Origin: Rhodospirillaceae bacterium
GTDB taxonomy: Bacteria; Pseudomonadota; Gammaproteobacteria; Steroidobacterales; Rariloculaceae
Length of the DNA stretch: 64,000 bases
Assembly: GCA_024638465.1 (NCBI GenBank)
Contig: JAHEKF010000006.1
Coordinates: 10,777 to 74,776 of the forward strand
Reading direction: 5' to 3'
Made by a program: the position numbers and the translations under genes. Shown here one piece after another: positions 1,847 to 38,987 of the stretch. The number at the start of each line of letters is the position of its first letter. The stretch's first letter is position 1. A model generated the notes under the pieces. That model was given only the letters and a program-made list of their open reading frames with translations, was not told where the DNA came from and did not search any database.

Positions 1847-3310
1847 ATGAGCAAGGAAGTCGGAATCAGCGGATTTGCCGTCTACGTTCCGCCGTACCGA
1901 GTCGATCTCCAGGATTGGTGCGATTGGACCGATGCACCCTGGGACAAGACCAGCGCCGTCATCGGCAACAGCTTCCGAATGCGCGGTCCGCATCAAAGCG
2001 TCTACACGATGGCTGCGACCGCCGTCATGCGACTCATCGACAATTACGAGATCGACCCGCGACGAGTCGGCTTCCTGGGGCTGGGCACGGAATCCAGTAC
2101 GGACAATTCGGCGGGCGCCGTCATTGTGAAGGGCATGATCGACGAAGCCCTTCGCGCGAGAGGCATGCCGCCCGTCAACCGTCATTGCGAAGTCCCCGAA
2201 CTCAAGCATGCCTGTCTCGGCGGCGTGTACGCAATGAAACACGGCTTGCGTTATCTCGCGCTCGAGGATCAGGATCGCTGCGCGATCGTCGTCAGCGCGG
2301 ATATCGCCGAATACGCGCGCGGCAGCTCCGGAGAGCCGACGCAGGGCGCCGGAGCCGTCGCCATGCTGCTCGAGACCGACCCCGATCTGCTGGAAATCGA
2401 TCTCAAGCGTATCGGCAGCGCTTCGGCGTATCGGGCCGTGGATTTCCGCAAGCCCGTTATGCGCAATCTCATTCGCGGCAAGCTCAACTGCCACTTCCAG
2501 GATCTGCCTGTTTTCAACGGCAAGTACTCGACGACCTGTTACCTGGACGAGACCCTGTATGCGCTCGACGACATGTTGCGCAAGCTCGGATCAGAACCCG
2601 CCGACTACTACAGAAGCCTGGCCGCAGCCTTTATGCATCGACCCTATCACCGCATGCCGATAACGTCCTTCGGGATGAGCTATCTGTTTGGCCTAGCTCA
2701 CAACGGCGCTGCGGGCATTGCCGAGCTCGATCAGCATTGCCAGGACGCGGGAATCGACGTCAATGCCGTGCTTGAAGAAATGCGCTCGGAACCGGACATC
2801 CTGCAACTCGTTCGTGACGGCGATATCGACACGGATGTTTACCCGCTCAGCGTTCAGCTGCTCAAGGAATTCCGCAAGAGCGAACTTTTCAATTCGCAGC
2901 TCGAAACCAAGATGTCGCTCGGTTCCGAACAGATGAAGGATATCGGCAACGTCTACTGCGCCGCGCTACCCGCCTGGATGGCGGCCGGACTCGAGGAGGC
3001 CGCGCTCTCGAATCGCGACCTGACTGGCGAGAAGATACTTGCGGTTGGCTACGGTAGTGGCGACGCCGCCGAAGCGATTCCGATGAAGCTGGCGGAGAAC
3101 TGGCAGGCCGCAGCCCGCAAGATCGCCTTCACGGAAGCGCTCGAACCGAAGCAAAACCTGACGCAGGCGCAGTACGAGATCCTGCACGACACGGGCGACG
3201 CGCCAGGACTCGGCGATCCCGCGGACGGTTTCGTGGTCGAGTCGGTCGGCGCGAGCTCCGATCCGAAATTCAGCGACGAAGGTATCGAGTACTACCGCTA
3301 CCTGAGCTGA
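1847..3310 (+). CDS. mvaS: hydroxymethylglutaryl-CoA synthase (long form, 487 aa)
   Basis: ATG 1847 follows AGGAG at 1835-1839. The sequence has initiation-condensing-enzyme features, with GLGTESSTDNSAG and the catalytic-Cys context ELKHACLGGVYA (ACxGG). It sits adjacent to the remaining mevalonate genes. Confidence 0.85.
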   Translation: MSKEVGISGFAVYVPPYRVDLQDWCDWTDAPWDKTSAVIGNSFRMRGPHQSVYTMAATAVMRLIDNYEIDPRRVGFLGLGTESSTDNSAGAVIVKGMIDEALRARGMPPVNRHCEVPELKHACLGGVYAMKHGLRYLALEDQDRCAIVVSADIAEYARGSSGEPTQGAGAVAMLLETDPDLLEIDLKRIGSASAYRAVDFRKPVMRNLIRGKLNCHFQDLPVFNGKYSTTCYLDETLYALDDMLRKLGSEPADYYRSLAAAFMHRPYHRMPITSFGMSYLFGLAHNGAAGIAELDQHCQDAGIDVNAVLEEMRSEPDILQLVRDGDIDTDVYPLSVQLLKEFRKSELFNSQLETKMSLGSEQMKDIGNVYCAALPAWMAAGLEEAALSNRDLTGEKILAVGYGSGDAAEAIPMKLAENWQAAARKIAFTEALEPKQNLTQAQYEILHDTGDAPGLGDPADGFVVESVGASSDPKFSDEGIEYYRYLS

Positions 3311-3401
3311 CCGCACGCCCCTCGTCCGAGACGCTCGACGAACTATCGGGGCCCTCCCAACAAGTCGCGACCGTCCCTTGCGACTCCACCATTCGTGCGG
3401 T

Positions 3402-4013
3402 TCAGAGCGCTGCGATCTGCTCGTCGAGCAGGCTCAGAAGATCGTCAGGATTACCGTCCTCCAGCGCGGCTCTGTACTCGGCCCGCTTCAACGCGAGATC
3501 ACTGACGCCGTCGGCGATGACATTGATGATCTTCCAGCCCGCGGCAGTCTCGTGCAGAAGGTATTCGATCGGAATAGCCGGCTGCGCATCGCGCCGGATA
3601 GTCGCTGTGACCATCGCGCGCCCGGAATCCAGAATCTTGGTACTTTCGATGCTGAAAGTTTCCGTGGAGACCGTCCTGAAACGAGCCGCATAAGTCATGC
3701 TGCTCAATCGCGCGAATTTCTCGATGAACGTCTCGCGCTGGGCGGCGTCGAAGCCATCCCAATATCTTCGTGTCGCGAACTGCGCGATGAAAGGCAAATC
3801 ATGGGTTTCCGAAATTAGCGGCGCAAGCTGCTCGTATCGCCGGCCGATGGAGTTCGGCTCACTTCGTGCCGCAGCGATCAGTCCCACGTGAAGCGCGTTG
3901 ACGCTGGCAAGCGGTGACTCGTACCCGGCGGATGCCGGACGCTGTGCCAACGCGCCGCTCAGCCAAATCATCGGCAGGATGACGAGCGCGGGTTTTGCGC
4001 AATGAGTCATCAT
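3402..4013 (-). CDS. hpnM: MlaC/Ttg2D-family lipid-binding periplasmic protein, hopanoid-associated (HpnM-like)
   Basis: 203 aa with a signal peptide (PALVILPMIWLSGALA). It has MlaC-like length and helix/sheet pattern. It lies immediately downstream of hpnH in the same operon. Confidence 0.75.
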   Translation of the reverse strand: MMTHCAKPALVILPMIWLSGALAQRPASAGYESPLASVNALHVGLIAAARSEPNSIGRRYEQLAPLISETHDLPFIAQFATRRYWDGFDAAQRETFIEKFARLSSMTYAARFRTVSTETFSIESTKILDSGRAMVTATIRRDAQPAIPIEYLLHETAAGWKIINVIADGVSDLALKRAEYRAALEDGNPDDLLSLLDEQIAAL

Positions 4014-4021
4014 TGAGAGTT

Positions 4022-5143
4022 TTAACGGCGATCTGAGGCGCTGCTGCCAATCTCGTCTACGGGAATCGCCACTCCCGCTGGCTTGCCGTCGTGCAGGACA
4101 GGCAATTCAGGAGCCATCTCGCCGTCGAGACGCGGCCCGAACAGGAAAACGCGGAGCGCTTTTAGCGGGTTTGCGACCGTATGGTCGACGGCCGTGCCTT
4201 CGTAGCCGCAATGCACCATGCAATCATCGCATTTGGGGTTTCGACCCGCGCCATAACGCTCCCAATCGGTCGCTTCCATAAGCTCGCTGAACGTCTCGGC
4301 ATAGCCCTCGTCGACGAGGAGATAGCACGGTTTCTGCCAACCGAAAACGTTATAGGTTGGATTGCTCCAGGGCGTGCACTGATAACTTTGATTGCCTGCG
4401 AGGAAATCCATGAACAGGCTGGATTGATTGAAACGCCATCTGCTGCCGCGCTCGCGGCCGATTTTAAAGATCTCGCGAAATAACCGCTTGGTCTGCCTGC
4501 GGCCGAGAAATACGTCCTGTCTGGGTGCGTGCTGATAGCTGTAGCCCGGCGACACGGTAATCCCTTCGAGCCCGAGAGTCATCGCGTGGTCGAAGAAATC
4601 TGCAACGTCGGCAGCATCCTCTCCATTGAACAACGTGCAGTTTGCCGTAACTCGAAACCCGCGACTGCGCGCAAGCTCGATGGCAGCGACTGCCTTATCG
4701 AACACGCCCTCACGGCAAACCGACTCATCGTGACGTTCGCGGTTACCATCGAGATGCACGGACCACGTGAAGTACGGCGATGGCTCATACTCATCTATCT
4801 TCTGCTGAAGCAGCAACGCATTGGTGCAGAGGTAGACGAATTTCTTGCGCGCGACAATTCCGCGAACGATCTTCGGCATGTCCTTGTGGATCAGTGGCTC
4901 GCCGCCCGGTATTGACACGACGGGCGCGCCGCAGTCATCCACGGCGCGGAGAGCGTCTTCGACCGACACACGCTTCTTCAGAATCTCGGCCGGATAGTCG
5001 ATCTTGCCACAGCCCGCGCAGGCCAGATTGCACTGGAACAGAGGCTCGAGCATGAGAACGAGCGGATAACGCTTTCTGCCGCGGAGCTTCTGCTCGAGTA
5101 TGTAGCGGCCGACACGGTAGGTCTGAACCAGTGGAATGCTCAT
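4022..5143 (-). CDS. hpnH: adenosylhopane synthase, radical SAM (HpnH)
   Basis: The sequence RYPLVLMLEPLFQCNLACAGCGKIDYP contains the CxxxCxxC radical-SAM motif in the characteristic HpnH context. The protein is 373 aa. Its start overlaps the idi stop (ATGA). Confidence 0.92.
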   Translation of the reverse strand: MSIPLVQTYRVGRYILEQKLRGRKRYPLVLMLEPLFQCNLACAGCGKIDYPAEILKKRVSVEDALRAVDDCGAPVVSIPGGEPLIHKDMPKIVRGIVARKKFVYLCTNALLLQQKIDEYEPSPYFTWSVHLDGNRERHDESVCREGVFDKAVAAIELARSRGFRVTANCTLFNGEDAADVADFFDHAMTLGLEGITVSPGYSYQHAPRQDVFLGRRQTKRLFREIFKIGRERGSRWRFNQSSLFMDFLAGNQSYQCTPWSNPTYNVFGWQKPCYLLVDEGYAETFSELMEATDWERYGAGRNPKCDDCMVHCGYEGTAVDHTVANPLKALRVFLFGPRLDGEMAPELPVLHDGKPAGVAIPVDEIGSSASDRR

Positions 5144-5748
5144 GTCGTTGATCGACTCTCGTTCGATATGACGGCGATCGAGCTATCGTTGCCGCCGAGA
5201 ATGTTGTCGAGATACCGGCGTGTAATTTGCGACCATTCCATCTTCAGCCAGGGAGTAAAGCTCTCGGGAGTGGCCGCGATCATCTCATCCATCGATATTG
5301 CGGGAACATAGCGAATTTCGGAGATTTCACGGTCGTTGAAATCAACGGAGCCACTGTACCGGCCGTAGTAGACCCAGCAGTATTCGTGCTCCGCGCCTAC
5401 GGCTCCATATTGCGCCTGATATTTGAACTTGTAGAGGAAATGAAGCGGACACTCGATGGCGAGTTCCTCGGCGAGACGCCGCGAGATAGCCTGCTCCATA
5501 GTTTCCCCAACGCGCGGATGCGAGCAACAGGTATTGGACCAGTATTCCGGCCACAAAGGCTTCTCCGCACTTCGACGTTGCAGCAACAATTCGTCGTCTT
5601 CATTGAACAGGAATATAGAAAACGCCCGATGGAGAATACCGTTTCCGGAATGGCAGTCGCTCTTCGCACTCTGCCCGATCTCGCGGTCGAGTTCATCGAC
5701 AAGAATCAGCTCTTCGCCGGAGCTGGATACGACTTCGCTACGTGCCAT
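5140..5748 (-). CDS. idi: isopentenyl-diphosphate delta-isomerase, type 1 (Nudix fold)
   Basis: Motifs LHRAFSIFLFN, WSNTCCSHP (catalytic Cys) and AEHEYCWVY (catalytic Glu) are present. The track ORF extends to 5865, but the ATG at 5746-5748 (MARSEVVSS...) fits IDI length and gives an 11-nt overlap with the upstream gene. Confidence 0.9.
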   Translation of the reverse strand: MARSEVVSSSGEELILVDELDREIGQSAKSDCHSGNGILHRAFSIFLFNEDDELLLQRRSAEKPLWPEYWSNTCCSHPRVGETMEQAISRRLAEELAIECPLHFLYKFKYQAQYGAVGAEHEYCWVYYGRYSGSVDFNDREISEIRYVPAISMDEMIAATPESFTPWLKMEWSQITRRYLDNILGGNDSSIAVISNESRSTT

Positions 5749-8014
5749 TGAGATCCGCTCCCAGATCGACGCGAATAGCCTGATAGCCAGCCGCACGAAT
5801 CGCGTTGACGACGGACGAGGAATCACCGTCACAGAGTGCAATGATAGAGCCTCCGCCGCCACCACCGGTCAACTTCGCACCCAGTGCGCCGTTTTCTCTT
5901 GCAATATCAACGAGTTGCTCAAGTTCTGGCGTCGAGACCTGAAGCGCATTGAGCATCCCGTGACAGACGTTCATGAGTTCGCCGAGCGTGACCAGGTCCT
6001 CGTCCTGGATCGCCTGCACGCCGCGTAGAACGAGCGCATCGATCTGGTCGAAGATACGCTCGTAGAGCTTGCGGTCCTGTTGCCAGGCCGCGCTGACGCG
6101 ACCCACGGTCTTCGCCGTGAGGCCTTCGTAGCCGGTCATGCCGATCACCATCGGAATCGGGGTCTTGATGTTCAGCGGCTCGACCAGCGGCGGCGTACCG
6201 CTACGAAAAACGAGCGGTTTGCCGTAGCACGCAAGGGTGTTGTCGATCCCGCTCGGGCTGCCGTGCGCAACTTTCTCGGCTTCGAACGCCAGCCGGTTAA
6301 CTTCTGCGTCGTCCAGACCTAACGAGAAGTGCTTGTCGATCGCTCTGACGATCGCAACCGCCATCGCTGCTGACCCGCCGAGTCCCATACTGCGTGGAAC
6401 TTCCGGAAAGACTTCGATTCGCATTGCGCGACCGCTGAGACCGAGTTCATCGAGCATGACGCCGGCCGACATCTCGAATCCGCGGCGCTGGCTCGCGTTG
6501 GGCGACAGCTGAAACTCCACGCCCCAGCGCGGTATCAGAAAGTGGATGCCGTCATCGCAGTCCTCGACCAGCGCCCTGATCGTCATCGGAACCGGCGCTG
6601 CAATCGCATGCCGGCCGTAGACGACCGCGTGCTCACCGAGAATGACCACCTTGCCGTAGCCGACACCGAATTTGTCCTGTTTCTCGAGCTCGCGCTTGCC
6701 TTCACGGCCGCTCGGAACAACGGGATTCGCGATCTCCTCGATGATCTCCTGTGCCTTCCAGACTTTGATCTCACCACTGAGGATCAGGCGCTCCAGGACC
6801 TCATCGAAGATCTCCGCGGGCGCACCCGCCGCGGTCACGACACTTCGTGCATGCAACGTCATGTGACCTTTCTGAATACCTTCTGTCGCGAGAGCGCGTA
6901 TGGCGGCGAAATTCTGTGCCAGACCGGCCGCAGCCATGACCTGGGCGAGTTCGGTCGCGGACTCTACACTGAGCAGACGCATGTTCAGAGCGGCGGTGGG
7001 ATTCGACTCGACGGCGGAACCCACAGTCCCGACTTTCAGCGGCATCTCGAGGCTGCCGCAGAGATTGCCATCCTCGTCCGCCCACCACTTCGTTAAGGAC
7101 GAATACCGTCCACTGCGTGCCGCGAACGCATGCGCGCCGGCTTCGATCGCTCTCCAGTCGTTTCCGGTCGCTATCGCGATCGGATCGATACCGTTCATGA
7201 TGCCTTTGTTATGGGTCGCGGCTCGATACGGATCGACTGCGGCAAATTCGCCGGCGACAATGATTCCGTCGCGCGCCTCTTCGCCGCTGTAGCCGCGGCC
7301 GCTAAGCGCAGCTACCGGAATTCTGCAGTTCGCCCTGACGAGTGCCCGGTCATTCAGATTGGACAAAATTCTTAAGAATACTTCTCCGCCCGTGATCGAC
7401 TCGATCAACGAAGCAACGCCCTCGCACATTCCATTGACGAGATTCGCACCCATCGCATCGCGGGTATCGACGAGCAGATGCACAACCAACATGGGTTTTC
7501 CACTCGACGGCAGCGGATGAACGAACAGCTCTATGTCCTGGGCGCCTCCGCCGCGCGCTACCATCTTCGGATGGAGACTGTTGGCCAGGCTCACGATCTC
7601 CTGGCGACGATCTCTCAACGCCTGCTTCGCGGTCTCGATATCGGGCACGTTTACGACCTGAATCTGGCCGATCAGAATCGGATCGGTCGCTTCCGTTTCG
7701 AAGCCGCCGTTCTCACCGATCAGCTTGGACGCTGAACTCAGCGCCGCAACGACCGAGGGCTCTTCGATTGCCATCGGCACAACGTAGCGTTTGCCGTTGA
7801 CGCGAAGGTTCATGCCCAGCCCCAAAGGCAGACCCATTACGCCGACGACGTTCTCGATCATCTTGTCGGCCGCATCGAGTTCCAGCGTATGTTTCCCGGT
7901 CGCCAGCGCGCGGAAATCGCTACCCGTGAGCAAGCCGCGCTCATGAACCGCGCGTACCCGCTCTTCGACACTCAGCCGGTAGAACTCCGGAATCCTCGAT
8001 CGATCGTCAGTCAC
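5738..8014 (-). CDS. bifunctional class II HMG-CoA reductase (aa 1-430) / mevalonate kinase (aa 449-758) fusion
   Basis: One uninterrupted 758-aa ORF. The N-terminal part carries ENVVGVMGLPLG, AIEEPSVVAA, DAMGANLVN, THNKGIMNGIDPIAIATGNDWRA and QKGHMTLHAR, the class II HMGR catalytic E/K/D/H contexts. The C-terminal part carries GKVVILGEHAVVYG, GLGGSAAMAVAIV and KLTGGGGGGSIIAL, which are GHMP kinase motifs I-III. The start is GTG. Confidence 0.9.
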   Translation of the reverse strand: MTDDRSRIPEFYRLSVEERVRAVHERGLLTGSDFRALATGKHTLELDAADKMIENVVGVMGLPLGLGMNLRVNGKRYVVPMAIEEPSVVAALSSASKLIGENGGFETEATDPILIGQIQVVNVPDIETAKQALRDRRQEIVSLANSLHPKMVARGGGAQDIELFVHPLPSSGKPMLVVHLLVDTRDAMGANLVNGMCEGVASLIESITGGEVFLRILSNLNDRALVRANCRIPVAALSGRGYSGEEARDGIIVAGEFAAVDPYRAATHNKGIMNGIDPIAIATGNDWRAIEAGAHAFAARSGRYSSLTKWWADEDGNLCGSLEMPLKVGTVGSAVESNPTAALNMRLLSVESATELAQVMAAAGLAQNFAAIRALATEGIQKGHMTLHARSVVTAAGAPAEIFDEVLERLILSGEIKVWKAQEIIEEIANPVVPSGREGKRELEKQDKFGVGYGKVVILGEHAVVYGRHAIAAPVPMTIRALVEDCDDGIHFLIPRWGVEFQLSPNASQRRGFEMSAGVMLDELGLSGRAMRIEVFPEVPRSMGLGGSAAMAVAIVRAIDKHFSLGLDDAEVNRLAFEAEKVAHGSPSGIDNTLACYGKPLVFRSGTPPLVEPLNIKTPIPMVIGMTGYEGLTAKTVGRVSAAWQQDRKLYERIFDQIDALVLRGVQAIQDEDLVTLGELMNVCHGMLNALQVSTPELEQLVDIARENGALGAKLTGGGGGGSIIALCDGDSSSVVNAIRAAGYQAIRVDLGADLNGT

Positions 8015-8993
8015 TTGCGTGCCCTTCGATTACCAGTCCGCTTTCATAGATATCCAAATCCAGCACCTTGTAGTCAGCAGCCACAGCCTGTTCGAACGCG
8101 GCAAGAGCATCCGGGTCCTGTGACCAGACGATACCGACATCTCCACCGCCGGCACCACTTATTTTATAGACAAGATCGAACCGCTCCGAGTGCCCCGTGA
8201 TTTTCTTGTGCTCCGTCGTCACGATCTCAGCGCCGATACGGCCCCCAAGCGCGTCCAGAGCATGTCCGTAGGCCTTTACCGCAGCCAGAAATCCGGGCGC
8301 GTCGTTGTCTCTCGCCGCTTCGTGACCTCGCGTTGCCCAATCGGCGAGATGACTTATGATCGCATCTGCCTCCTTCGGGCGCGCATCGCGCCACGCGTCG
8401 AACGCTGTGACGAGGCCGCTCGTGGCCGCGGATTTCCCGGAGTAGATTACTCTGAACTGAACGCCATCCGGCAAAGCGGCGTTCGAGACGTTCGGCTCTC
8501 CACCGTCGTCGAGTGCATAGCAGATGACACCACCCGTCAGGCTGGCGGCGATATCGAGTCCGCTTCCCTTTCCCCCCTGAAAATTCCGATGCAACTCGAT
8601 TAGCCGCCGGAGAGAAGGCGTTGCCGCCAATCCGGCAAAGCGTGACCAGGCTGCATCCCACGCGGTAAGCGCTGCCGCACTCGAGCCGATTCCCAACTTC
8701 TGTCCCTGCTCGAAGAACGCGGCTGTATCGACAGACCCTCGCCACGGCCCGGGAGCGGAATCAGGCGCGATGACGAGGTCCACCAGTGGCGCGCCGCTCG
8801 GCGCACCGACTGCAAAGCTCAGTTCATCAGGCTCGGGAGCCCGAACAGCAAGATGACAGAGATCGTCATCGCTCAACATGATCTCGACGCGACAGAGTCT
8901 GTCTATCGCCATCACGAGTGCGCTGGCACCGCACAGTACGGCGTATTCGCCGAGCAAGACGAGTTTTCCCGGTGCGGTCGCAGTAATCGTCAC
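8007..8993 (-). CDS. mvaK2: phosphomevalonate kinase (GHMP family)
   Basis: GHMP motifs APGKLVLLGEYAVL, GIGSSAAALTAW and KISGAGGGDVGIV are present. The gene sits between the decarboxylase and the HMGR::MK fusion. GTG start, with an 8-nt overlap with the next gene. Confidence 0.85.
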   Translation of the reverse strand: MTITATAPGKLVLLGEYAVLCGASALVMAIDRLCRVEIMLSDDDLCHLAVRAPEPDELSFAVGAPSGAPLVDLVIAPDSAPGPWRGSVDTAAFFEQGQKLGIGSSAAALTAWDAAWSRFAGLAATPSLRRLIELHRNFQGGKGSGLDIAASLTGGVICYALDDGGEPNVSNAALPDGVQFRVIYSGKSAATSGLVTAFDAWRDARPKEADAIISHLADWATRGHEAARDNDAPGFLAAVKAYGHALDALGGRIGAEIVTTEHKKITGHSERFDLVYKISGAGGGDVGIVWSQDPDALAAFEQAVAADYKVLDLDIYESGLVIEGHASD

Positions 8994-8996
8994 GGG

Positions 8997-9968
8997 TCAG
9001 AGCGCTTCCAGACCCGGGCCGAGCCCGCTTTCGATGACATCGATCACGCCGGGCACGCCACGCAGCGCCGTGACCACGGTGGGCACAACATCCGGGGTGC
9101 AAACTGCCTTGACCTGTGGTCCCGCGTCGATCGTGAAAAACACCGGCGTCCCTGCGGCTTGAAGTGCCGCGCAGGCTTGCAGGCACGCGACGGTCGCAGG
9201 GTTCCAGTAAAGCAGCGGTGGTTGGTTGGCCATCGCGGCAGCGTGCATCTTGAGGCAACTGTGTTCAGCGACTCTGGCAAGTGCTGCAAAGTCTTTCGCC
9301 AGTATTGCGCTTCGTCCCAGAGCGAGATCGGCTGCGCTCGTCTCTACCCACGCCGAATAATAGGGCGACGTCGCCGCCGACGCAGCCATGCCGGAGCGTG
9401 ATCCAACCGGCTTCTCGCCGCGGCCGGTAATCGCGATAACGACAACCAAGGGCCACGCAGCTGCGTCCAGAAGTGGTTCCGCATAGCTGTCGCTGCCATC
9501 GACTGCCGAGCCGGCGTGCATCTCCACGAAGCCACCGAAAATCGAGCGGGCAGCTGAGCCGGAACCGCGACGCGCAAGCACGCTCAGCTCTCGCTCCGTC
9601 AGCTCCAGACCGAGTGCGCGGGTCGCCGCCGCGCTCAACGCGGCGAATCCCGAGGCGGATGACGCGAGCCCCGCGCCGGTCGGGAAGTTATTCTCGCTGC
9701 TGACTCTTGCCGGTAGAGTCACGCCAGCGAGTTCGCGTACGAGATCCAGGGTGTTCGAGGCTCGCGCGAGCTGGTCGGGACGGGAAGTGCCGCCGAGCAG
9801 GAACTCGTCACCCGATAATTCGTCCGAGAACTCGACTTCGGTATCGGACCAAAGTCGATCGAGCGTGACCGATATCGATCCCACAGCGGGGATATTCAGC
9901 CTGTCATCCGCCTTTCCCCAGTACTTGATCAGAGCGATATTCGCTCGGGCTCGAACGCGCGCTTTCAT
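8997..9968 (-). CDS. mvaD: diphosphomevalonate decarboxylase
   Basis: ANIALIKYWGKADDRLNIP and GLASSASGFAALS are hallmark MDD motifs. 323 aa. Confidence 0.92.
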   Translation of the reverse strand: MKARVRARANIALIKYWGKADDRLNIPAVGSISVTLDRLWSDTEVEFSDELSGDEFLLGGTSRPDQLARASNTLDLVRELAGVTLPARVSSENNFPTGAGLASSASGFAALSAAATRALGLELTERELSVLARRGSGSAARSIFGGFVEMHAGSAVDGSDSYAEPLLDAAAWPLVVVIAITGRGEKPVGSRSGMAASAATSPYYSAWVETSAADLALGRSAILAKDFAALARVAEHSCLKMHAAAMANQPPLLYWNPATVACLQACAALQAAGTPVFFTIDAGPQVKAVCTPDVVPTVVTALRGVPGVIDVIESGLGPGLEAL

Positions 9969-9977
9969 GTCCCTACC

Positions 9978-10964
9978 CTACAGGTAATGATGCTCGCGAA
10001 ACCAGCCGACCGCGGCGGCAATGGCCTCGACGGGCGGGCGTGACTGGTAGCCGAGCTCCTGCCTGGCTTTTTCGCTGGAGAAGTACATGCGTTTAGCAGA
10101 CATTCGAACAGCGTCGAGCGTGACACGCGGCTCGACAGCCGCGAGCCGCGCCCAGGCTTCCGCCAGAAAGGCGACCGGAATAACGACCCGGTGCGGCAAG
10201 CGAACTGATGGCGGTTTACGCCCGGTTTGCGCGGCGACGAACGCAAGTATTTCGCGAAGGGTCAGGTCCTCACCGCCGAGAATATACCGCTCTCCCAAAT
10301 GACCTTTCTCCAGGGCGAGCAGGTGGCCCTCCGCGACATCATCCACATGAACGACATTGAGGCCGGTATCGACATAGGCCGGAATTCGCCCCGCCGCAGC
10401 GTCGACGATAATCCTCCCGGTCGGCGTTGGCTTGAAATCACCGGGACCGATAGGCGTTGAAGGATTGACCGTAACGACGTCGAGTCCAAGTTTGCGGGCA
10501 CGCTCACCGACCGCGATCTCGGCTCGATACTTCGAGCGCTTATACGTACCGGTCATATCTGCTATCGAAACCGGCGTCTCTTCGTTCGCAGGACGGCCAT
10601 CCGCATGCAGGCCCAGAGTCGCGACACTCGATGTGTACACAACTCGATCGACGCCAGCAGCCGCGGCCGCCTCGATGACGTTGACGGAACCTTCGATGTT
10701 GGTCCGGTTCATGTTTTCCGGGTCCGGAACCCAGATTCGATAGTCGGCCGCGACGTGAAAAACCGCGCGGCAGCCCGACATCGCAGGCGCGAGCGACTCG
10801 CTGACGGTGATGTCGCCTTCGGCGATCTCCGCGTCGAGTCCGGCCAGGTTCTGCCGATCACTGCCTGGACGAACGAATGCCCGCACCCGCTCTCCGCGCG
10901 CCAGCAATGCGCGGACGACGGCAGCACCGACGAAACCGTTGCCGCCTGTAACCAGATTCGTCAC
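9978..10964 (-). CDS. hpnA: hopanoid-associated NAD-dependent sugar epimerase/reductase (HpnA)
   Basis: Contains the Rossmann motif VTGGNGFVGAAVV and the YKRSK (YxxxK) motif of extended SDRs. 328 aa. GTGA overlap with hpnN. Confidence 0.85.
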   Translation of the reverse strand: MTNLVTGGNGFVGAAVVRALLARGERVRAFVRPGSDRQNLAGLDAEIAEGDITVSESLAPAMSGCRAVFHVAADYRIWVPDPENMNRTNIEGSVNVIEAAAAAGVDRVVYTSSVATLGLHADGRPANEETPVSIADMTGTYKRSKYRAEIAVGERARKLGLDVVTVNPSTPIGPGDFKPTPTGRIIVDAAAGRIPAYVDTGLNVVHVDDVAEGHLLALEKGHLGERYILGGEDLTLREILAFVAAQTGRKPPSVRLPHRVVIPVAFLAEAWARLAAVEPRVTLDAVRMSAKRMYFSSEKARQELGYQSRPPVEAIAAAVGWFREHHYL

Positions 10965-13573
10965 GCTGTCCGGAAGATATTCAATAAGGCAGGAAGCACG
11001 ATCAGTGTCGCCGCCAGCGTCGCGATCATACCCATCGTCAATACCTGGCCCATGCTGGACATACCGAGATGAGATGCGAACGCGAGGTTGCCGAAACTTG
11101 CGATCGTGGTAAGTCCGCTGGCAAGCACGGCGCGCGATGTACTCGTGCCACTGATATTCCCGTCCGTCGGCGGCTCTGAGCGCATGCGATGAACGATATG
11201 TATGCCGTTGTCAACGCCGATTCCCAACAGTAACGGCAATGCGATGACGTTGGCGAAGTTGAACTCGAGACCGACCACGACTGTGGCCGCGGCTGTTGCA
11301 GCCGCAGCGAGCAGGACCGGAACAAGGACCAGTAACGCATCGCGCCATCGCGCAAGAAATATAAAAAGGATAATGCTGACGAGGATCAGCGCATAGGTCA
11401 GCGCCAGCTCGAATGAACGCGCTACCGTTCGCCCTGCTTCTTCGTAGACGACCGGCAATCCGGTCGCAGTTCTTACAACGGACCTGACGCTCGACACGAA
11501 GCGCTCGGACTGCATATTGTCCGTCACATCGACTGCCGGCTGGATCTCGATCAGGCGGCTGCCGTCAGTGGCGATCCAGCGATCCAGCAGGTCCGGCGGG
11601 AGGTCCTCTAGCGTGATGGAATTCGCGTAGGAGAGCGCTGTGTCGATCCGTCCGAGCTGCACTGGAAGCGTCCGCAGCAAATCCGAATCGAGACGGACCA
11701 GCTTCGCCTGCCGCGCCATCTCGGGCTGAGAACCGATAACCGCCAGCAGATTTCCAAGCGACGCTCCCAGCGTGACGAGGCTCGGACTCGGCACGGACAC
11801 CGCAGCTACGCGCGCGTTGAGCCCGACGAGCGACGCCAGCAACGCATCGGGCTCAGGTTCGACTGACGCAAAATCCGCAAAGTCCGGCCCGAGCAGCAGG
11901 CCAATGTCTTCCAGCAACAGCAATTTGGTGTCCTGGTCGGACGGGACGAGCGAGGCGGCGGTAGCGACGGAGTCGACTGTATCGAGCTCCGCCAGCGCCT
12001 GAGACCACTCGATTGCTCTGGCCTCATCAGGTGCCAACGCCACCATATTGAGCGGCAGCGCGTCGCCGTCGCGCGCAAGCTCCTGCAGCGTCTGCACCGA
12101 TTCGGTATCCGGATCGCGCAAATTGACCGGGTTGCGATCGAATCCGATTCGCGGCACCAGGATCGCCGACACAACCGCGATCGCGACCGCCGAGATCAGA
12201 ATTTTCCAGGGATAGTCGAGCACGAGCGACAGACAGCCCGCTCCGAGCCACGGCCGCCGTACCCGCGAATCGTCTCTCAGGACCAACGATATCAACGCGG
12301 GAAGCAGCGTGACGCTGACGATGAGACTCAAAAACATGCCTGTTCCGGAAATCAGTCCGAGCTCCGACACGCCGGAGAAAGGCGTTGGGATAAAGGCATA
12401 GAATCCTGCCGCGGTTGTGAAGCTACAGATCACGAGTGAGGTGCCAACGCCGCCGACGGTCGCGACGATCGCCTCGTCGAGTCCGGCGCCATCGCCGCGA
12501 AGCTCGTTCAGGCGCAGGCCAATATGCAGGATGAAGTCGACACCCAGCCCGATATATAAAACGGCGAACGCCACCGAGATCAGGTTCAGATTACCGATGG
12601 TTGCGGCCGCAAACGCAGCGGTTAACGACAGGCCGACGAGCAGTGTCGTAATTGAAATCACGAGCAATGCGACCGAGCGCAACGCCGCGTAAAGGATGGC
12701 GGCGACGAGCAGGAGGGCGGCCAGTCCGGCCACCGCAGCGCCGCGCGTTACGCTCGTCATTTCCTCGTGTTCCATCGCGACGGTACCCGTGACACGCGCA
12801 CGCACGTCGCCAGGCGCGGCCAAAGAGAGCTCGGCAATAATCTCTCGTATCCCCTCGATAGCGGCCGCCGCGGGGCGCGGTGAGGAAAAATCCTGCACCG
12901 GCTGCAGGATCACATAGCGCCTTGCCGGTCCGCCGCGCTCGCCTCCCAGCAATGCCTGCCACGACAGCGCGCGACTCTGGCCGCTCGCGGCGGCATCGAA
13001 CACGCGCGCCGTTTCGGCATAGAGCGGATCCGTCTCCGGCTCCCCATACGCGACGATCTCGGAAACAACATCGACGAATTCCGCGCCCGAGTAGTTCTGC
13101 TTCAGTCGTCCTGTCAGCGGTTGCGCTCGCGCAAGCCGGTCCGTGAGCGACTCGAGTTCGTCCACGTCGAGATACAACATACCGTGACGCTCGAAAAATT
13201 CGCCTGCCCCAGGCACGACGATTCCGCGATAGAGCGCCGGAGTTTCCCGTAGTCGTTCGGCCAGGAGCAGCGCGGCTGCCTCGGCGTCTTCCGCGATTGC
13301 TGCATCGACAACGATGACGATATTTCGATCGCGAATCGGGAATTTCTCGCGGAAAGCAAGGTAATCCTGACGCCATTCGAGCTCCGCGGAGATCATGTCC
13401 GCGGTATCGGTATTAAGCCCCAAATTCCGCGAAGCGAACCAGGCTGACAGTGCCGCCAATGCCATACAGACGACGATTGTGAGTGCGCGACGGCGCAGAA
13501 CCAGCCCGACCCAGACTCGCAACGCTTGCGCAATTCGAATCTCGATCTGACCCTGCTTCATCGCTTCAATCAC
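10961..13573 (-). CDS. hpnN: RND/MMPL-superfamily hopanoid transporter (HpnN)
   Basis: 870 aa with two blocks of about 6 TM helices separated by large soluble loops, which is RND topology. The N-terminus resembles the HpnN family. It is embedded between hpnG and hpnA. Confidence 0.88.
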   Translation of the reverse strand: MIEAMKQGQIEIRIAQALRVWVGLVLRRRALTIVVCMALAALSAWFASRNLGLNTDTADMISAELEWRQDYLAFREKFPIRDRNIVIVVDAAIAEDAEAAALLLAERLRETPALYRGIVVPGAGEFFERHGMLYLDVDELESLTDRLARAQPLTGRLKQNYSGAEFVDVVSEIVAYGEPETDPLYAETARVFDAAASGQSRALSWQALLGGERGGPARRYVILQPVQDFSSPRPAAAAIEGIREIIAELSLAAPGDVRARVTGTVAMEHEEMTSVTRGAAVAGLAALLLVAAILYAALRSVALLVISITTLLVGLSLTAAFAAATIGNLNLISVAFAVLYIGLGVDFILHIGLRLNELRGDGAGLDEAIVATVGGVGTSLVICSFTTAAGFYAFIPTPFSGVSELGLISGTGMFLSLIVSVTLLPALISLVLRDDSRVRRPWLGAGCLSLVLDYPWKILISAVAIAVVSAILVPRIGFDRNPVNLRDPDTESVQTLQELARDGDALPLNMVALAPDEARAIEWSQALAELDTVDSVATAASLVPSDQDTKLLLLEDIGLLLGPDFADFASVEPEPDALLASLVGLNARVAAVSVPSPSLVTLGASLGNLLAVIGSQPEMARQAKLVRLDSDLLRTLPVQLGRIDTALSYANSITLEDLPPDLLDRWIATDGSRLIEIQPAVDVTDNMQSERFVSSVRSVVRTATGLPVVYEEAGRTVARSFELALTYALILVSIILFIFLARWRDALLVLVPVLLAAAATAAATVVVGLEFNFANVIALPLLLGIGVDNGIHIVHRMRSEPPTDGNISGTSTSRAVLASGLTTIASFGNLAFASHLGMSSMGQVLTMGMIATLAATLIVLPALLNIFRTA

Positions 13574-14327
13574 CGGCCATGGCTGCGTCGTCGAACACTA
13601 GACCGTGCGGAACCAGCAGTGCGGAAGCAGCCGCTAGCGATCGACGCGCGGCACGGTAACGACGGAACAGGTTCACAAGACTCGGCCAGTCGCGCGGGTT
13701 GACTAATACCGCCCATGCCGCACCCGGTTTTCGATTGCCGGCCTCGTCAATCCACGCTTCAACGCCGGCCGGCAATGAATCTTCACTAGTATCGACTACG
13801 ACCCGGACAGCGACGAAAGGACGCCTCGCATCTGCTGACGCGCGCGCGATCGCGGCCGATTCCATATCGACTGCAACGGCGCCCGTAGTAGTTGCTATCG
13901 CCGCTTTCTCGGTCGCGGTCTTTAACACGTCAGGCGACTGATAGAGATCGCCTTCATCAACTGGAAACCGCGTTTTGAGACTGCGACAGAGTTGCATACG
14001 CCAGCGAGAGTCCGTGTCGAAAACCGCGCCGGATTGCGCTCGCACTCGCCGCGGCACGACAATCGTGCCGCTCCGAAGCCCGCGTTGCAGGCCACCTGCA
14101 ACTCCCCACGACACGATCGCTGTTGCACCGGCTGCAAGCGCGGTACGCGTTGCGTCATAGGCGCGATCTTGACCGGGACCGCATTGGTACACATGAATCG
14201 GGGACTGGTTAAGTGCGTCGATCCTGGCATCGAGCGAAGCGTGTTCGAATGCGAGCGCCGAAATGACGGCTATGTCGCTCGCCGACCCCGCCTCATCGAT
14301 CGTGTATGGACTAGAGCCGGCCCGCAT
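13566..14327 (-). CDS. hpnG: hopanoid-associated phosphorylase/nucleosidase (adenosylhopane nucleosidase, HpnG)
   Basis: PNP/UDP-family features: AVISALAFE, SWGVAGGL and VAVDMESAAIA. The track ORF starts at 14432, but the ATG at 14325-14327 (MRAGSSPYT...) gives the expected length of about 250 aa and a 17-nt overlap with sqs. Confidence 0.85.
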   Translation of the reverse strand: MRAGSSPYTIDEAGSASDIAVISALAFEHASLDARIDALNQSPIHVYQCGPGQDRAYDATRTALAAGATAIVSWGVAGGLQRGLRSGTIVVPRRVRAQSGAVFDTDSRWRMQLCRSLKTRFPVDEGDLYQSPDVLKTATEKAAIATTTGAVAVDMESAAIARASADARRPFVAVRVVVDTSEDSLPAGVEAWIDEAGNRKPGAAWAVLVNPRDWPSLVNLFRRYRAARRSLAAASALLVPHGLVFDDAAMAGD

Positions 14328-15447
14328 CCAACCGTTCCAGCGGCGACACGCGGGGACGGAGATCGGGACTCGACTCAGGCGACTCCAGCGGCAGTCCGGC
14401 CGCGGCAAGCGAGAACAACGCTCGCAGCACATAGTCGCTACGAAGCGTGAGATTAGTCGCGAATATTGTCGCCTTTACGCTTCGGCGCGAAATCTTGACC
14501 TGCTTCGAAGAAGAGAAATCCGGATTAGCGTGCAGCTTGCGAAGCGTCAGCACTGCCAGACCGATCGCCCAGAGACAGAATTTTCTGATGCCAGCCTCGC
14601 GGCCTGGAATAATGAGCGTGTAGTCGAGCGCCACGCGCAGGTGTCGATGAGCGATCCCGATAAGTTCGTTGAGCCCCTCGCGAAATACATCGGAGCCATG
14701 CTCGCGATCGAGGTTTTCGAGATCGAATTCGGCTTCGCTGAAGACGGAGCGCGGCAGCCAGCACGTCTCGGCCTGCCGATCCTCCCAGATGTCCTTGAGG
14801 ATATTGGTCAGTTGCAGGCCCTGGCCGAACGACAGCGCAAGCCGCATCATTTCTTCGCGACGCGGTTGCAACTCCGGGCAGTGAACGCAAAAAAGCTCTG
14901 TCAGCATCTCGCCAACGACACCGGCAACGAAGTAGCAGTAGTCGGCCAGTTCATCGGTATCCCCGAGGCCGGCAAGACTTTTGCGTCGCTGAAACTCCGG
15001 CATGCCCCGACACATGATTTCAACACAACGCGTTAGTGCCTCGCGCTCCTGCATAGAAAACCCGGAAGTAACGCGGATTACGGTCGCCGTTCCGGCAACC
15101 AGGTCGCGCTCATCATCGAGTGTCCTCGAGGACAGTAGCGGCAGCAGGTCGGCGGAGAACGTTTCCGCATCCTCCTCGCCCCGGACGATCTCGACGAAGC
15201 GCTGGTGAAACTCGGATTTCTGTTCGTTATCGAGCCCGACGTCGTCCTCGATGGTGTCGGCCAGCCGACACAGCAGATACGCGTTTGCGACGACCTGAGC
15301 GAGACGTTCAGGCAACACGGGAATCGTCAGCGCGAAAGTTCGCGAAACGCCCGGCAGTATCTGTTTCTGGTACTCGAGATCGGTCAATGAGTCGACGACC
15401 GGTCCGCTGTTGATTGGCTTCACACTCACCCGGGCCGTTCGCGCCAC
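14311..15447 (-). CDS. sqs: squalene synthase (single-enzyme, FDFT1/Sqs type; trans-isoprenyl diphosphate synthase head-to-head family)
   Basis: Motifs GVSRTFALTIP, CRLADTIEDD (first Asp-rich), YCYFVAGVVGEMLT and GLQLTNILKDIWED are present. The start codon is uncertain because only 22 nt separate it from ispA. Confidence 0.85.
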   Translation of the reverse strand: MARTARVSVKPINSGPVVDSLTDLEYQKQILPGVSRTFALTIPVLPERLAQVVANAYLLCRLADTIEDDVGLDNEQKSEFHQRFVEIVRGEEDAETFSADLLPLLSSRTLDDERDLVAGTATVIRVTSGFSMQEREALTRCVEIMCRGMPEFQRRKSLAGLGDTDELADYCYFVAGVVGEMLTELFCVHCPELQPRREEMMRLALSFGQGLQLTNILKDIWEDRQAETCWLPRSVFSEAEFDLENLDREHGSDVFREGLNELIGIAHRHLRVALDYTLIIPGREAGIRKFCLWAIGLAVLTLRKLHANPDFSSSKQVKISRRSVKATIFATNLTLRSDYVLRALFSLAAAGLPLESPESSPDLRPRVSPLERLDAGRL

Positions 15448-15469
15448 ATCGGTGGTAGGATCAGCGCGT

Positions 15470-16378
15470 ATGATAGCACGCGCCCCAGAGCAGACTTTCG
15501 CGGACCGGCTCGAGCATTATCGTTCGCGCGTCGACGCCGAACTCGAGCAGGTCGTCGCCGGCGCAAAAGACGTGCCCGCGCGACTGCACGATGCGATGAC
15601 CTATTCCGTGCTCGGCGGCGGAAAGCGAATACGCCCGCTGCTGGCTTATGCAAGCGCAGAGCTATTCGAGCTCGACGAGTCGCTTATCGACCCGGTTGCG
15701 GCTGCGGTCGAGCTCGTGCACGCCTATTCGCTTGTCCATGATGACCTGCCTGCTATGGACGACGACGACCTGCGGCGCGGCAGGGCCACGACGCACCGCC
15801 AGTTCGATGAAGCCACCGCGATACTCGCTGGCGACGCGCTCCAGGCTCTCGCGTTCGAAGTCTTGACCAACGATGTCCGACTCGGAAAGAACCCCTCAAC
15901 GCAGATCCAGACCACCCGGCGACTTGCTTCGGCAATCGGGCCCTCTGGAATGGCAGGCGGTCAGGCAATGGATATAGCGGCTGAGGGAGCACGCATCGAC
16001 GAAAAGACGCTGGAAGATATCCACCGCCGGAAGACCGGCGAACTGATTCGCGCGTCGATCGCAATACCGGGAATACTCGCCAGCACGTCTCGCGAGATCT
16101 CCATGGAGCTCGAAGCGTTCGGCAGCGATATCGGGCTGGTATTTCAGATTCGCGACGATTTGCTCGAGGTTGAGCAGGACACGGCAACGTTGGGCAAGAA
16201 CGCCGGCTCGGACGAAGAGAAAGAGAAAGCCACCTACCCGTCGATTCTCGGCGTCAAAGGCGCGGAAAATCGTGCAAGCGAACTTTACTCTCGCGCAATG
16301 CAGAAGCTCGAGAACCTCGGAACGCGGTCTGAAGGGCTACGCTGGGTCTCCGACTACATCATCAATCGTTCGAACTGA
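15470..16378 (+). CDS. ispA: farnesyl diphosphate synthase (geranyltranstransferase)
   Basis: Motifs GGKRIRPLL, VHAYSLVHDDLPAMDDDDLRRG (FARM) and FQIRDDLLE (SARM) are present. ATG 15470 follows GGTAGGA. The track ORF begins earlier, at 15410. Confidence 0.92.
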   Translation: MIARAPEQTFADRLEHYRSRVDAELEQVVAGAKDVPARLHDAMTYSVLGGGKRIRPLLAYASAELFELDESLIDPVAAAVELVHAYSLVHDDLPAMDDDDLRRGRATTHRQFDEATAILAGDALQALAFEVLTNDVRLGKNPSTQIQTTRRLASAIGPSGMAGGQAMDIAAEGARIDEKTLEDIHRRKTGELIRASIAIPGILASTSREISMELEAFGSDIGLVFQIRDDLLEVEQDTATLGKNAGSDEEKEKATYPSILGVKGAENRASELYSRAMQKLENLGTRSEGLRWVSDYIINRSN

Positions 16379-17015: not shown

Positions 17016-18257
17016 ATGGGCCTTGGAACGGCTTTCATGCCACTGGGCATCGGTGCCCTGAACCGGAGCGGCGAAGCACTGCGCCGCCTGGGAATTGATC
17101 CGCCGCGGCTCGATCGAGATAGCCTCGTCGACGCAGCCGTCAACCGTGCGGGATCCGAGGCTTTTGGATCGTGGCCTTTCGACGAACCGCTTGATCGTTT
17201 GCTATCAGCCTACGAACGAGAAGCAGAGCTATCTACCGTCGGTCGCCTCTCGGTACGCGAGATGCTCGTCGGTCTGCTCGAGAATCTGCTTCGCCTGGAA
17301 CGGGAACGAGAACAGAACCCGGCGATCGCCGATGAGGCCATCGCTGCGCCCGTGTTCATTACGGGTCTCCCGCGTACCGGCACGACACTACTGCACGGGC
17401 TAATCGCACAAGACCCCGGGGTACGCACACCGCTCACCTGGGAAGTCATGTATCCGGCGGGCTACAGTTATTCTCCCGGAGAAGTCGCTTCTGCACGACG
17501 CCGAACGAACGCGCGACTGGATTGGGTAAAGCGGCTCGCGCCGGATTTCCAGCGCATACATGACATTGATGCAGACCTGCCTCAGGAGTGCATCGCGATC
17601 ATGGCGCAGGGACTGTTCAGCATCCAGTTCCACACGACGCATAACGTCCCGTGCTATCAGGATTGGTTCGAGCAACAGGGCCAACAGCGCGCATACGAGT
17701 TTCATCATCGCCTGCTACAGCACCTGCAGACAAAGTCACCGAGCGGCCAGTGGGTACTAAAAGCACCCGGACATCTGTTCGGTCTCGGCGAACTGCTGGC
17801 GCAATATCCCGACGCGCGAATCGTGCAGACGCATCGAAACCCGGCAGCGGTCATGGGTTCGATCGCGAGTCTGGTAACGGTGCTGCGACGCGCCTTCAGC
17901 GATCGTATCGATCCCGGGCAGATCGGTGTGGATTGGTGTCGCCGCTGGGGAGACGCGCTCGACCGCAGCTTGTCTGCCCGCGACGAAAACCCGGAGGCGC
18001 CGCTGCTCGATCTCCGCTACGACGAAATCGTCTCGGATCCTCTAGCCGTTGTCGAGCGTCTCTATGGTTTCCTGGGATGGCAGCTGGGCGCAGAAGCGCG
18101 ATCTGCGATGCAATGCTTTCTCGACGCGAACCCGAAGAACAAGTACGGCGCGCATCGCTATTCGCTGCCCGATTTCGGCCTCGACCCGTCGCGACTTCAG
18201 CAACGTTTTGCGAGCTACTGCGAGCGATTCGAGATCCAGCTGACGGCTTCGAGCTAA
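17016..18257 (+). CDS. sulfotransferase family protein
   Basis: Contains the P-loop-like 5'-PSB motif GLPRTGTTLLHG and a later HRNPAAVMGS (3'-PB-like). 413 aa. Confidence 0.75.
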   Translation: MGLGTAFMPLGIGALNRSGEALRRLGIDPPRLDRDSLVDAAVNRAGSEAFGSWPFDEPLDRLLSAYEREAELSTVGRLSVREMLVGLLENLLRLEREREQNPAIADEAIAAPVFITGLPRTGTTLLHGLIAQDPGVRTPLTWEVMYPAGYSYSPGEVASARRRTNARLDWVKRLAPDFQRIHDIDADLPQECIAIMAQGLFSIQFHTTHNVPCYQDWFEQQGQQRAYEFHHRLLQHLQTKSPSGQWVLKAPGHLFGLGELLAQYPDARIVQTHRNPAAVMGSIASLVTVLRRAFSDRIDPGQIGVDWCRRWGDALDRSLSARDENPEAPLLDLRYDEIVSDPLAVVERLYGFLGWQLGAEARSAMQCFLDANPKNKYGAHRYSLPDFGLDPSRLQQRFASYCERFEIQLTASS

Positions 18258-38105: not shown

Positions 38106-38106
38106 C

Positions 38107-38134
38107 GTTTCCGCGGAAACAATTTCTAGAAATT
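38107..38134. repeat. two abutting perfect 14-bp palindromes
   Basis: GTTTCCGCGGAAAC is immediately followed by AATTTCTAGAAATT. They begin 2 nt after the ModF-like stop, at the left edge of the low-GC island. Confidence 0.6.
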
Positions 38135-38167
38135 GCTTTAACTTCGGTTGCTAAACGGGTCGGGGCT

Positions 38168-38191
38168 GCTTCTGGCCGCCGGCAAACGTTC
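38168..38191 (+). repeat. island repeat copy A
   Basis: GCTTCTGGCCGCCGGCAAACGTTC. The core GCTTYTGGCCG is exact. 63 nt after the ModF-like stop. Confidence 0.7.
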
Positions 38192-38332
38192 GCGATGCCA
38201 ATTTGTGTGGCGTGATCTGCACAATATGTGTAGCCTGACTCAACAAGTCGAGGGTCAAGACTGTCGAACCGATCGTGGCGATCATGGCTCTCGGACACGC
38301 AAACCGTTTTGGCGACATGACTCTGGAGACTT

Positions 38333-38887: not shown

Positions 38888-38917
38888 TTGAGCGATAGCA
38901 GATATGGACGAGCAGCC

Positions 38918-38941: not shown

Positions 38942-38987
38942 ACGAACAGTTAATATGCACGGAGCTGCATAAGCTGGGGGACAAGAA

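Follow-up and report, generated by a model that had tools for sequence, protein, structure and literature searches.

A mevalonate gene block as the predicted core of a conserved isoprenoid-lipid super-operon with hopanoid genes in uncultured Gammaproteobacteria

When the genes of the mevalonate (MVA) pathway lie between hopanoid (hpn) genes, do they supply isopentenyl diphosphate (IPP) to hopanoid synthesis only, or to the cell at large? This question is raised by a 64,000-nucleotide stretch of DNA (hereafter the window; contig JAHEKF010000006.1 of assembly GCA_024638465.1, positions 10,777 to 74,776), deposited as a Rhodospirillaceae bacterium and placed by GTDB in the gammaproteobacterial family Rariloculaceae. 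A first-pass annotation had described the locus as a complete MVA pathway nested inside an hpn operon and probably dedicated to it. Our analysis favors a different emphasis, to which we assign a probability of roughly 0.6: the locus would be a lineage-conserved isoprenoid-lipid super-operon in which the MVA block is the core, and probably the main or only source of IPP, while the hpn genes are accessory cargo.

Gene order and its fate among relatives

The list of open reading frames (ORFs) of the window contains ten ORFs in an unbroken minus-strand run from 15447 down to 3402, flanked by plus-strand ORFs of which one ends at 3310 and another opens near 15410. Read along the minus strand, the genes are sqs, hpnG, hpnN, hpnA, mvaD (diphosphomevalonate decarboxylase, MVD), a putative phosphomevalonate kinase (PMK), a fusion of 3-hydroxy-3-methylglutaryl-coenzyme A (HMG-CoA) reductase with mevalonate kinase (HMGR::MK), idi, hpnH and hpnM, an order on which the ORF list and the family calls agree with the first-pass annotation. 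The flanking genes are likewise placed as it had claimed, with hmgS converging on the 3’ end of the run and ispA diverging from its 5’ end, and the junctions it quoted are exact on direct reading: the idi stop and hpnH start overlap as ATGA (5140–5143), the hpnN stop and hpnA start as GTGA (10961–10964), PMK and HMGR::MK share GTGACTGA (8007–8014), and hpnG and hpnN share GTGATTGA (13566–13573). Start codons were chosen from junction reading, cross-species DNA alignment (for sqs and ispA) and independent gene calls, which gave as likely true starts GTG 15423 for sqs, ATG 15470 for ispA, ATG 5748 for idi, ATG 14327 for hpnG and ATG 1847 for hmgS. Position 15447, from which the ten genes had been said to run, is correct as the edge of the first ORF, the true start of sqs being more likely GTG 15423. 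With the most plausible starts, HMGR::MK and idi overlap by 11 nucleotides (5738–5748), sqs and hpnG overlap by 17 (14311–14327), and the other gaps between operon genes measure 3–9 nucleotides.

Relatives were collected by scanning the HMGR::MK protein against one genome per species, which gave 80 loci, all from metagenome-assembled genomes (MAGs), onto which 12 window proteins were mapped by tblastn. All of these loci belong to uncultured Gammaproteobacteria (some labelled Candidatus Rariloculaceae or Rariloculus, others mislabelled Rhodospirillaceae or Chromatiales), and the MAGs come from soil, fen, lake and deep sea. The hpn genes directly adjoin the MVA genes in 30 of the 80: the full order is present in 13, and 17 more have the same hpn/MVA adjacency with truncation at a contig end or partial loss. 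Across relatives the PMK/HMGR::MK and hpnN/hpnA junctions are mostly overlaps of 4 nucleotides and the MVD/PMK gaps span 0–3, and junction overlaps are conserved among species that share only 40–87% protein identity. A JGI metagenome contig, with an HMGR::MK 94% identical to that of the window, shows the same 12 genes in the same layout when its genes are called independently; compared with this contig, all 12 genes show purifying selection, with ratios of nonsynonymous to synonymous substitution rates (dN/dS) of 0.036–0.224 at a dS of ~0.8–1.2 (HMGR::MK 0.036, hmgS 0.040, hpnH 0.045, hpnM 0.17, hpnG 0.22). Since dozens of species-level genomes have this order with these tight junctions, the operon arrangement is not a product of chance, and on sequence evidence it is real, old and functional. 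Its host lineage would be the clade formed by Candidatus Rariloculales and relatives.

The hpn genes are not retained everywhere. About ten loci lack them (L004, L019, L021, L022, L027, L029, L032, L035 and L036, together with L067, which is also without sqs) and have a compact form, in which ispA faces away from a sqs-MVD-PMK-HMGR::MK-idi run on which hmgS converges; two others (L039 and L043) lack hpnN and hpnM. In a neighbor-joining tree of HMGR::MK, loci with hpn genes are spread over the whole clade, down to its deepest branch (L037), and the hpn-less forms occupy at least three positions, one of them beside the window’s own subclade. Locus L001 has recorded such a loss: at ~7540–8000, directly upstream of MVD, a single ORF passes without a change of frame from HpnG residues 1 to ~191 into the C-terminal 15 residues of HpnA (314–328). 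This fusion is the scar of a ~3.9-kb deletion that took out hpnN completely, together with most of hpnA and the 3’ part of hpnG. Gene remnants were also sought in the sqs/MVD and idi/hmgS spacers of the hpn-less loci, and a clear scar was found only in L001.

Outside this clade, a sister clade (L040, L042 and L044–L079), ~65% identical, carries the HMGR::MK-idi pair alone among unrelated neighbors; the annotated neighborhood of one member (L051) holds unrelated genes and no hpn or further MVA context. Because the sister clade keeps only HMGR::MK-idi, the MVA genes would predate their association with hpn genes. Another of its members (L059) has two HMGR::MK-idi copies, inverted and 4.8 kb apart. 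Within the clade, the MVA block is present in all ~40 members and is kept where the hpn genes have been deleted, a pattern that suggests a constant MVA core with the hpn genes as dispensable accessory passengers. The hpn genes may have joined both flanks of this core early in the clade and may since have been shed, wholly or partly, several times.

The earlier view of a supply dedicated to hopanoids does not fit these losses, as some ten lineages have dropped the hpn genes and kept the MVA block, and L001 bears the scar. Instead, MVA is probably the general IPP route of these bacteria, because the block survives loss of the hpn genes, belongs to the most constrained parts of the locus and is clade-wide. 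A weaker argument in the same direction is that ispA stands without xseB or dxs and that no gene of the methylerythritol phosphate (MEP) pathway was met in 1.44 Mb.

Gene families and a predicted route

Family calls were made by comparing scores in bits with the curated NCBIfam cut-offs, with Pfam and PDB matches as a supplement. HMGR, MK, MVD and IDI all exceed these cut-offs. The first two form a single ORF of 758 residues (5738..8014, minus strand), in which a class II HMG-CoA reductase occupies residues ~5–390 (TIGR00532, 416 bits against a cut-off of 260) and a mevalonate kinase residues ~454–747 (TIGR00549, 238 against 163). The reductase motifs ENVVG, DAMGAN and GHMTLH and the kinase GHMP motif MGLGGSAA are all intact, and the protein joins two consecutive pathway steps, with MK placed C-terminal to HMGR. 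The MVD gene (8997..9968, minus strand) scores 281 bits against 171 for TIGR01240 and matches Pfam MVD-like_N and MDD_C, while idi (5140..5748, minus strand) encodes a type 1 IPP isomerase (NF002995, 165 against 127; TIGR02150, 158 against 106) whose ATG at 5748 has a GGGAGC-type ribosome-binding site and agrees with a gene call of 202 residues in the relative L087.

Fusions of this kind are common in metagenomes: grouped at 90% identity, those that share the three Pfam domains of HMGR::MK and lie within 79% identity of the query make up more than 120 clusters, and ~15–20 further 50%-identity representatives align with it co-linearly over the full length. Public annotation of these homologues reads only ‘HMG-CoA reductase, degradative’. 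We rejected the catabolic role that this name implies, because here the reductase forms one protein with MK and its gene lies among those for PMK, MVD, IDI and HMGS.

The remaining MVA genes score below the curated cut-offs. The third GHMP kinase (8007..8993, minus strand) scores 69 bits against 166 for TIGR01220, with weak matches to MK families; its best PDB match is 3k17 (Lin0012; E=4e-12), and the motifs APGKLVLLGEY and GIGSSAA are present. In relatives it lies constantly between MVD and HMGR::MK, and it is because of this position that we assign it as PMK. The hmgS gene (1847..3310, plus strand), whose ATG at 1847 is preceded by AGGAGC, falls below every NCBIfam cut-off (best match TIGR01835, 171 against 360); all of its top PDB matches are HMG-CoA synthases (best E=2.7e-30), and its orthologue in L087 matches Pfam HMG_CoA_synt_N (PF01154). 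Catalytic or ATP-binding motifs are intact in HMGR, MK, PMK, MVD and SQS. As no thiolase family match was found among the window ORFs scanned, the pathway that had been called complete is so only from acetoacetyl-CoA onward.

The cluster also contains a source of squalene. Its first gene, sqs (14311..15423, minus strand), encodes a one-step, eukaryote-type squalene synthase (Pfam SQS_PSY, 184 bits) with two Asp-rich motifs (DTIED and DIWED) and a GTG start that is conserved in the cross-species alignment; the equivalog cut-off of its best NCBIfam match is not reached (TIGR01559, 111 against 287), and its top PDB matches are squalene synthases (best E=1.5e-21). The divergent ispA (15470..16378, plus strand) encodes a farnesyl diphosphate synthase (NF045485, 354 against 275) and has apt, in the opposite orientation, as its next gene, with no dxs after it and without its usual xseB and dxs partners at this locus. 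Further along, at 17016–18257 (plus strand), lies the gene for a 413-residue Sulfotransfer_3 protein, syntenic with apt and ispA in ~20 relatives, some of them hpn-less.

Of the hpn assignments that had been proposed, those of HpnH, HpnA and HpnN clear a curated cut-off, while those of HpnG and HpnM are best matches that stay below it. The hpnH gene (4022..5143, minus strand), 76–86% identical in relatives, encodes a radical-SAM adenosylhopane synthase (TIGR03470, 550.1 against 225.05; Radical_SAM and DUF3463), and hpnA (9978..10964, minus strand) a hopanoid-associated NAD-dependent sugar epimerase of the short-chain dehydrogenase/reductase type (TIGR03466, 489.8 against 367.65). The product of hpnN (10961..13573, minus strand), an RND/MMPL-type hopanoid transporter, passes TIGR03480 (841.5 against 751.85) and fails the stricter, newer equivalog NF052374 (616 against 1100); its start is GTG 13573 or ATG 13561, the gene call in L087 being 866 residues long. 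The hpnG-like gene (13566..14327, minus strand) would encode a nucleoside phosphorylase acting as adenosylhopane nucleosidase (TIGR03468, 160.4 against 187.1; PNP_UDP_1), and the hpnM-like gene (3402..4013, minus strand) a periplasmic lipid-binding protein of the MlaC family (TIGR03481, 147.9, or rounded 148, against 160.1, or 160; Pfam MlaC, 113). Five orthologues of each are below the cut-off as well (HpnG 142–165, HpnM 137–157), so that the low scores are a property of the clade rather than a defect of the window copy. For both proteins these TIGR families remain the best match (E 1e-43 to 1e-48), and both genes are syntenic with hpnH, hpnA and hpnN. Most relatives also carry hpnB between hpnH and hpnM (TIGR03469, 398–428 against 379; for instance L033 at 13984–15144 and L008 at 13997–15157, and likewise L013, L020 and others). 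It is missing from that position in the window and in L003, L023, L034, L037 and L038. HpnA and HpnN have secondary matches to the sterol proteins SdmB and BstA, and a sterol (Bst/Sdm) system was rejected, these scores lying far below the cut-offs (244 against 600 and 191 against 1400).

The gene for squalene-hopene cyclase, shc, was sought in several ways. There is no SQHop_cyclase Pfam match among the window ORFs, and no ORF combining DxDDT and QW motifs among the long ORFs of the window or of the 80 loci with 10-kb flanks. In L008, where hpnM and hmgS are lacking, the region downstream of hpnH holds hpnB, an unknown ORF and a sulfate ABC transporter, and no shc. A cluster without shc cannot make a hopanoid on its own; in some known hopanoid producers shc lies outside the hpn cluster.

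Taken together, the assignments outline a route whose enzyme activities are predicted from sequence. The convergently encoded HmgS would form HMG-CoA, the fused HMGR-MK would convert it through mevalonate to mevalonate-5-phosphate, and PMK, MVD and type 1 IDI would yield IPP and dimethylallyl diphosphate. The divergently transcribed IspA would make farnesyl diphosphate, two molecules of which Sqs would condense to squalene, and a squalene-hopene cyclase presumed to be encoded elsewhere would give diploptene. HpnH would then adenosylate diploptene and HpnG would take off the adenine, building the ribosyl side chain, whose product HpnA (plus HpnB in most relatives) may modify before HpnN and HpnM carry the hopanoids to the outer membrane. 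Through co-transcription and regulation linked to ispA, the supply of precursors would be matched to the output of triterpenoids.

Control regions and alternative explanations

By cross-species DNA alignment of the starts, the divergent spacer between sqs and ispA is 46 bp long. A 28-bp inverted repeat, GTGnTAnnAT-N8-ATnnTAnCAC (15452–15479), extends from this spacer into the first ispA codons. It is unique in the window (expected matches 0.00). A single copy stands at the corresponding junction of related loci, with an exact match in 22 and one mismatch in 6 more, hpn-less loci and the sqs-less L067 included. Because the repeat overlaps the Shine-Dalgarno sequence and ATG of ispA, part of its conservation is translational; its outer GTG/CAC arms, however, persist in loci that encode a different residue there (Ala or Thr). 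We propose it as a candidate operator shared by the two transcription units. No regulator gene lies near it. At the other end, the convergent spacer between hpnM and hmgS (3311..3401, 91 nucleotides between the stops) contains a long hairpin (fold of 3305–3410, -47.7 kcal/mol, z = -2.0 against shuffles, with no U-tract), a possible bidirectional terminator.

Within the block, sites that could divide it are at background level: sigma-70-like promoters number 6 (4.7±2.3 in shuffled sequence), by a simple pattern that is blind to non-canonical promoters, and terminator-like hairpins 20 (14.7±4.1). An Rfam scan of the whole window gave no match, and hence no riboswitch or leader. The ten genes, all on the same strand and joined by overlaps or by gaps of at most 9 nucleotides that are kept across species, likely form a single transcription unit, and the 46-bp control region between sqs and ispA is the most likely origin of their common transcript. 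The layout, the conserved junctions and the background counts thus side with the first-pass annotation, which had called the run probably one transcription unit; co-transcription keeps that standing here.

Several points weigh against an MVA core that serves as general IPP source with hpn genes aboard. Five proteins (HpnG, HpnM, sqs, HMGS and PMK) fall short of their curated NCBIfam cut-offs. Neither the window nor, for any relative, the region up to 10 kb from the operon yielded an shc, so hopanoid synthesis would depend on a gene not seen at these loci. The tree that places the losses is a single-protein neighbor-joining tree without support values. Internal promoters are possible, co-transcription being deduced from layout. 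Finally, tblastn with the E. coli queries Dxs, Dxr, IspG and IspH found no match in the window and the 80 loci (1.44 Mb), a sample of ~0.5% of each genome (64 kb for the window and at most 20 kb per relative) that is weak evidence for absence of the MEP pathway. This last point leaves room for a normal MEP pathway that does the housekeeping, with the operon as a private mevalonate supply for squalene and extended hopanoids, like the MVA cassettes of Streptomyces terpenoid clusters. Most Proteobacteria do use MEP, and the MVA genes lie physically between hpn genes in one packed same-strand block that begins with sqs and has ispA diverging from it. Yet the roughly ten lineages that retain the MVA block after losing every hpn gene indicate that the block is independent of hopanoid tailoring. 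Accessory cassettes, moreover, are typically patchy in distribution. Instead of patchiness tied to the product pathway, we find MVA genes that are clade-wide, apparently vertical and highly constrained (HMGR::MK 0.036, hmgS 0.040), and a sister clade with the HMGR::MK fusion in no hpn context at all. With the missing dxs after ispA and the MEP-free 1.44 Mb added, a private supply seems unlikely to us.

The other alternatives concern what the hpn homologues do and whether their position means anything. HpnH, HpnG, HpnA, HpnN and HpnM might process and export some other squalene-derived or polyprenyl lipid: neither the window nor any of the 80 neighborhoods has an shc, HpnG and HpnM are below their cut-offs in every relative tested, HpnN fails NF052374, HpnA and HpnN have the secondary matches to SdmB and BstA, and most hpn-less lineages keep sqs, so that squalene has another use there. 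We nevertheless regard a non-hopanoid product as improbable, as HpnH (550 against 225), HpnA, HpnN (TIGR03480) and the HpnB of relatives pass equivalog-type cut-offs, the sterol-family scores are far too low, five or six hopanoid-associated families in one place are hard to explain otherwise, and shc is known to lie outside the hpn cluster in some producers. Passive packing, with internal promoters driving separate hpn and MVA transcripts and an adjacency devoid of functional meaning, could draw on the blindness of the promoter scan to non-canonical sites and on the fact that hpn genes can be deleted with the MVA genes undisturbed; start/stop overlaps of 4–17 nucleotides, however, give no space for intergenic promoters, they persist across species at 40–87% protein identity, and the order is stable in a clade whose two closest members are already at a dS of ~1, all of which makes this explanation very improbable. 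Beyond the conserved super-operon with its MVA core, which we retain, a bolder version can be put forward tentatively: an entire order-level clade of uncultured Gammaproteobacteria, widespread in the environment, may have swapped MEP for MVA and may carry a super-operon reaching from HMG-CoA to exported extended hopanoids, with an HMGR-MK fusion and a palindromic operator shared with ispA.

Known systems and other genes of the window

In the literature searched (Rariloculaceae or Rariloculus, mevalonate together with hopanoid or hpn genes, and the fusion) we found no publication that describes the operon or an HMGR-MK fusion. The suggestion that an operon with MVA genes interleaved among hpn genes is undescribed therefore stands as regards publications, while the order itself proved common in MAGs. 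Precursor genes in or beside hopanoid clusters have precedents for the MEP pathway: several hpn clusters of Alphaproteobacteria and Streptomyces contain ispH and dxs, and the hopanoid cluster of Streptomyces coelicolor (SCO6759-6771) includes a polyprenyl synthase, ispG and dxs. Isoprenoid genes have also been drawn adjacent to shc loci (bioRxiv 10.1101/2025.07.29.667474). With the canonical hpn clusters of Zymomonas mobilis, Rhodopseudomonas palustris TIE-1, Burkholderia and Methylobacterium, the present locus shares hpnA, hpnG, hpnH, hpnN and hpnM (and hpnB in relatives), but its supply genes are those of MVA and not MEP, its squalene would come from a one-step SQS and not from HpnCDE, the defining gene shc is neither in nor near the cluster, and the MVA block divides the hpn genes into two groups within one operon. 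The Streptomyces coelicolor cluster likewise unites precursor supply, prenyl diphosphate synthase, squalene synthesis and hpnH in one locus; unlike ours, it has extra MEP copies, shc and hpnCDE, is actinobacterial and has no transporter module.

Bacterial MVA operons offer a second comparison. They include mvaA-idi-hcs-mvk-pmk-mvd of Paracoccus zeaxanthinifaciens and the Gram-positive mvaK1-mvaD-mvaK2, and in Streptomyces sp. CL190 an MVA cassette stands beside terpenoid clusters. Common to them and the present locus are clustered genes for a class II-type HMGR and for the classical MK, PMK and MVD route with HMGS (PMK and HMGS being putative assignments here) and, in the Streptomyces cassette, physical attachment to a terpenoid pathway. 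Here, in contrast, HMGR and MK form one polypeptide, IDI is of type 1, sqs comes first, hopanoid genes are aboard, and the distribution is clade-wide rather than strain-specific. For the fusion itself, the nearest parallel is MvaE of Enterococcus, in which acetoacetyl-CoA thiolase is fused to HMG-CoA reductase: both are bifunctional MVA enzymes with a class II HMGR, but the partner here is the downstream enzyme MK, placed C-terminal to HMGR, and the fused activities are consecutive. Proteins of ~750–800 residues with HMGR at the C-terminus are also among the HMGR::MK homology matches. What appears new is the combination (MVA genes with hpn tailoring and transport genes in one operon, a one-step SQS, no shc, and the HMGR-MK fusion), its parts being known.

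Hopanoids, which count among the major lipids of bacterial membranes and serve as geological biomarkers, have carbon and hydrogen isotope signatures that vary with the origin of IPP from MEP or MVA. If the bolder version is correct, the hopanoids of this clade would carry an MVA and not an MEP isotopic imprint, which would matter for the interpretation of hopane biomarkers. A lineage of Proteobacteria that is widespread and builds squalene from mevalonate, with bacteriohopanepolyols as probable further products, would count as an unrecognized source type. The operon would also represent a compact natural module from acetoacetyl-CoA to squalene with a fused HMGR-MK, of interest for metabolic engineering, and the natural deletion series (full, without hpnN and hpnA, and without hpn genes) provides material on how accessory lipid pathways attach to a core and detach from it.

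The rest of the window contains several other features. A TonB-dependent receptor is encoded at 18265–20322. At 31094–34537 (minus strand), the gene for a 1147-residue single-chain protein of the indolepyruvate ferredoxin oxidoreductase family (NF009588, 1562 bits) adjoins that for a 554-residue pyridoxal-phosphate-dependent protein resembling threonine/hydroxyaspartate dehydratases, with a long N-terminal extension. The region 38000–42000, where the GC content falls to 0.53–0.56, the GC skew is positive and several ORFs have no Pfam match, may be a foreign insert. The segment 54333–62791 (minus strand) carries an ExbB-ExbD-ExbD set followed by two very large tetratricopeptide-repeat proteins (938 and 628 residues). 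A plus-strand cassette at 49841–54315 encodes a TIGR04282-like protein (DUF2064), a VTT/DedA membrane protein, an FAD disulfide oxidoreductase, a TIGR04283 glycosyltransferase and a radical SAM protein; the glycosyltransferase, of a family named for arsenosugar biosynthesis, scores 187.5 bits against a cut-off of 182.

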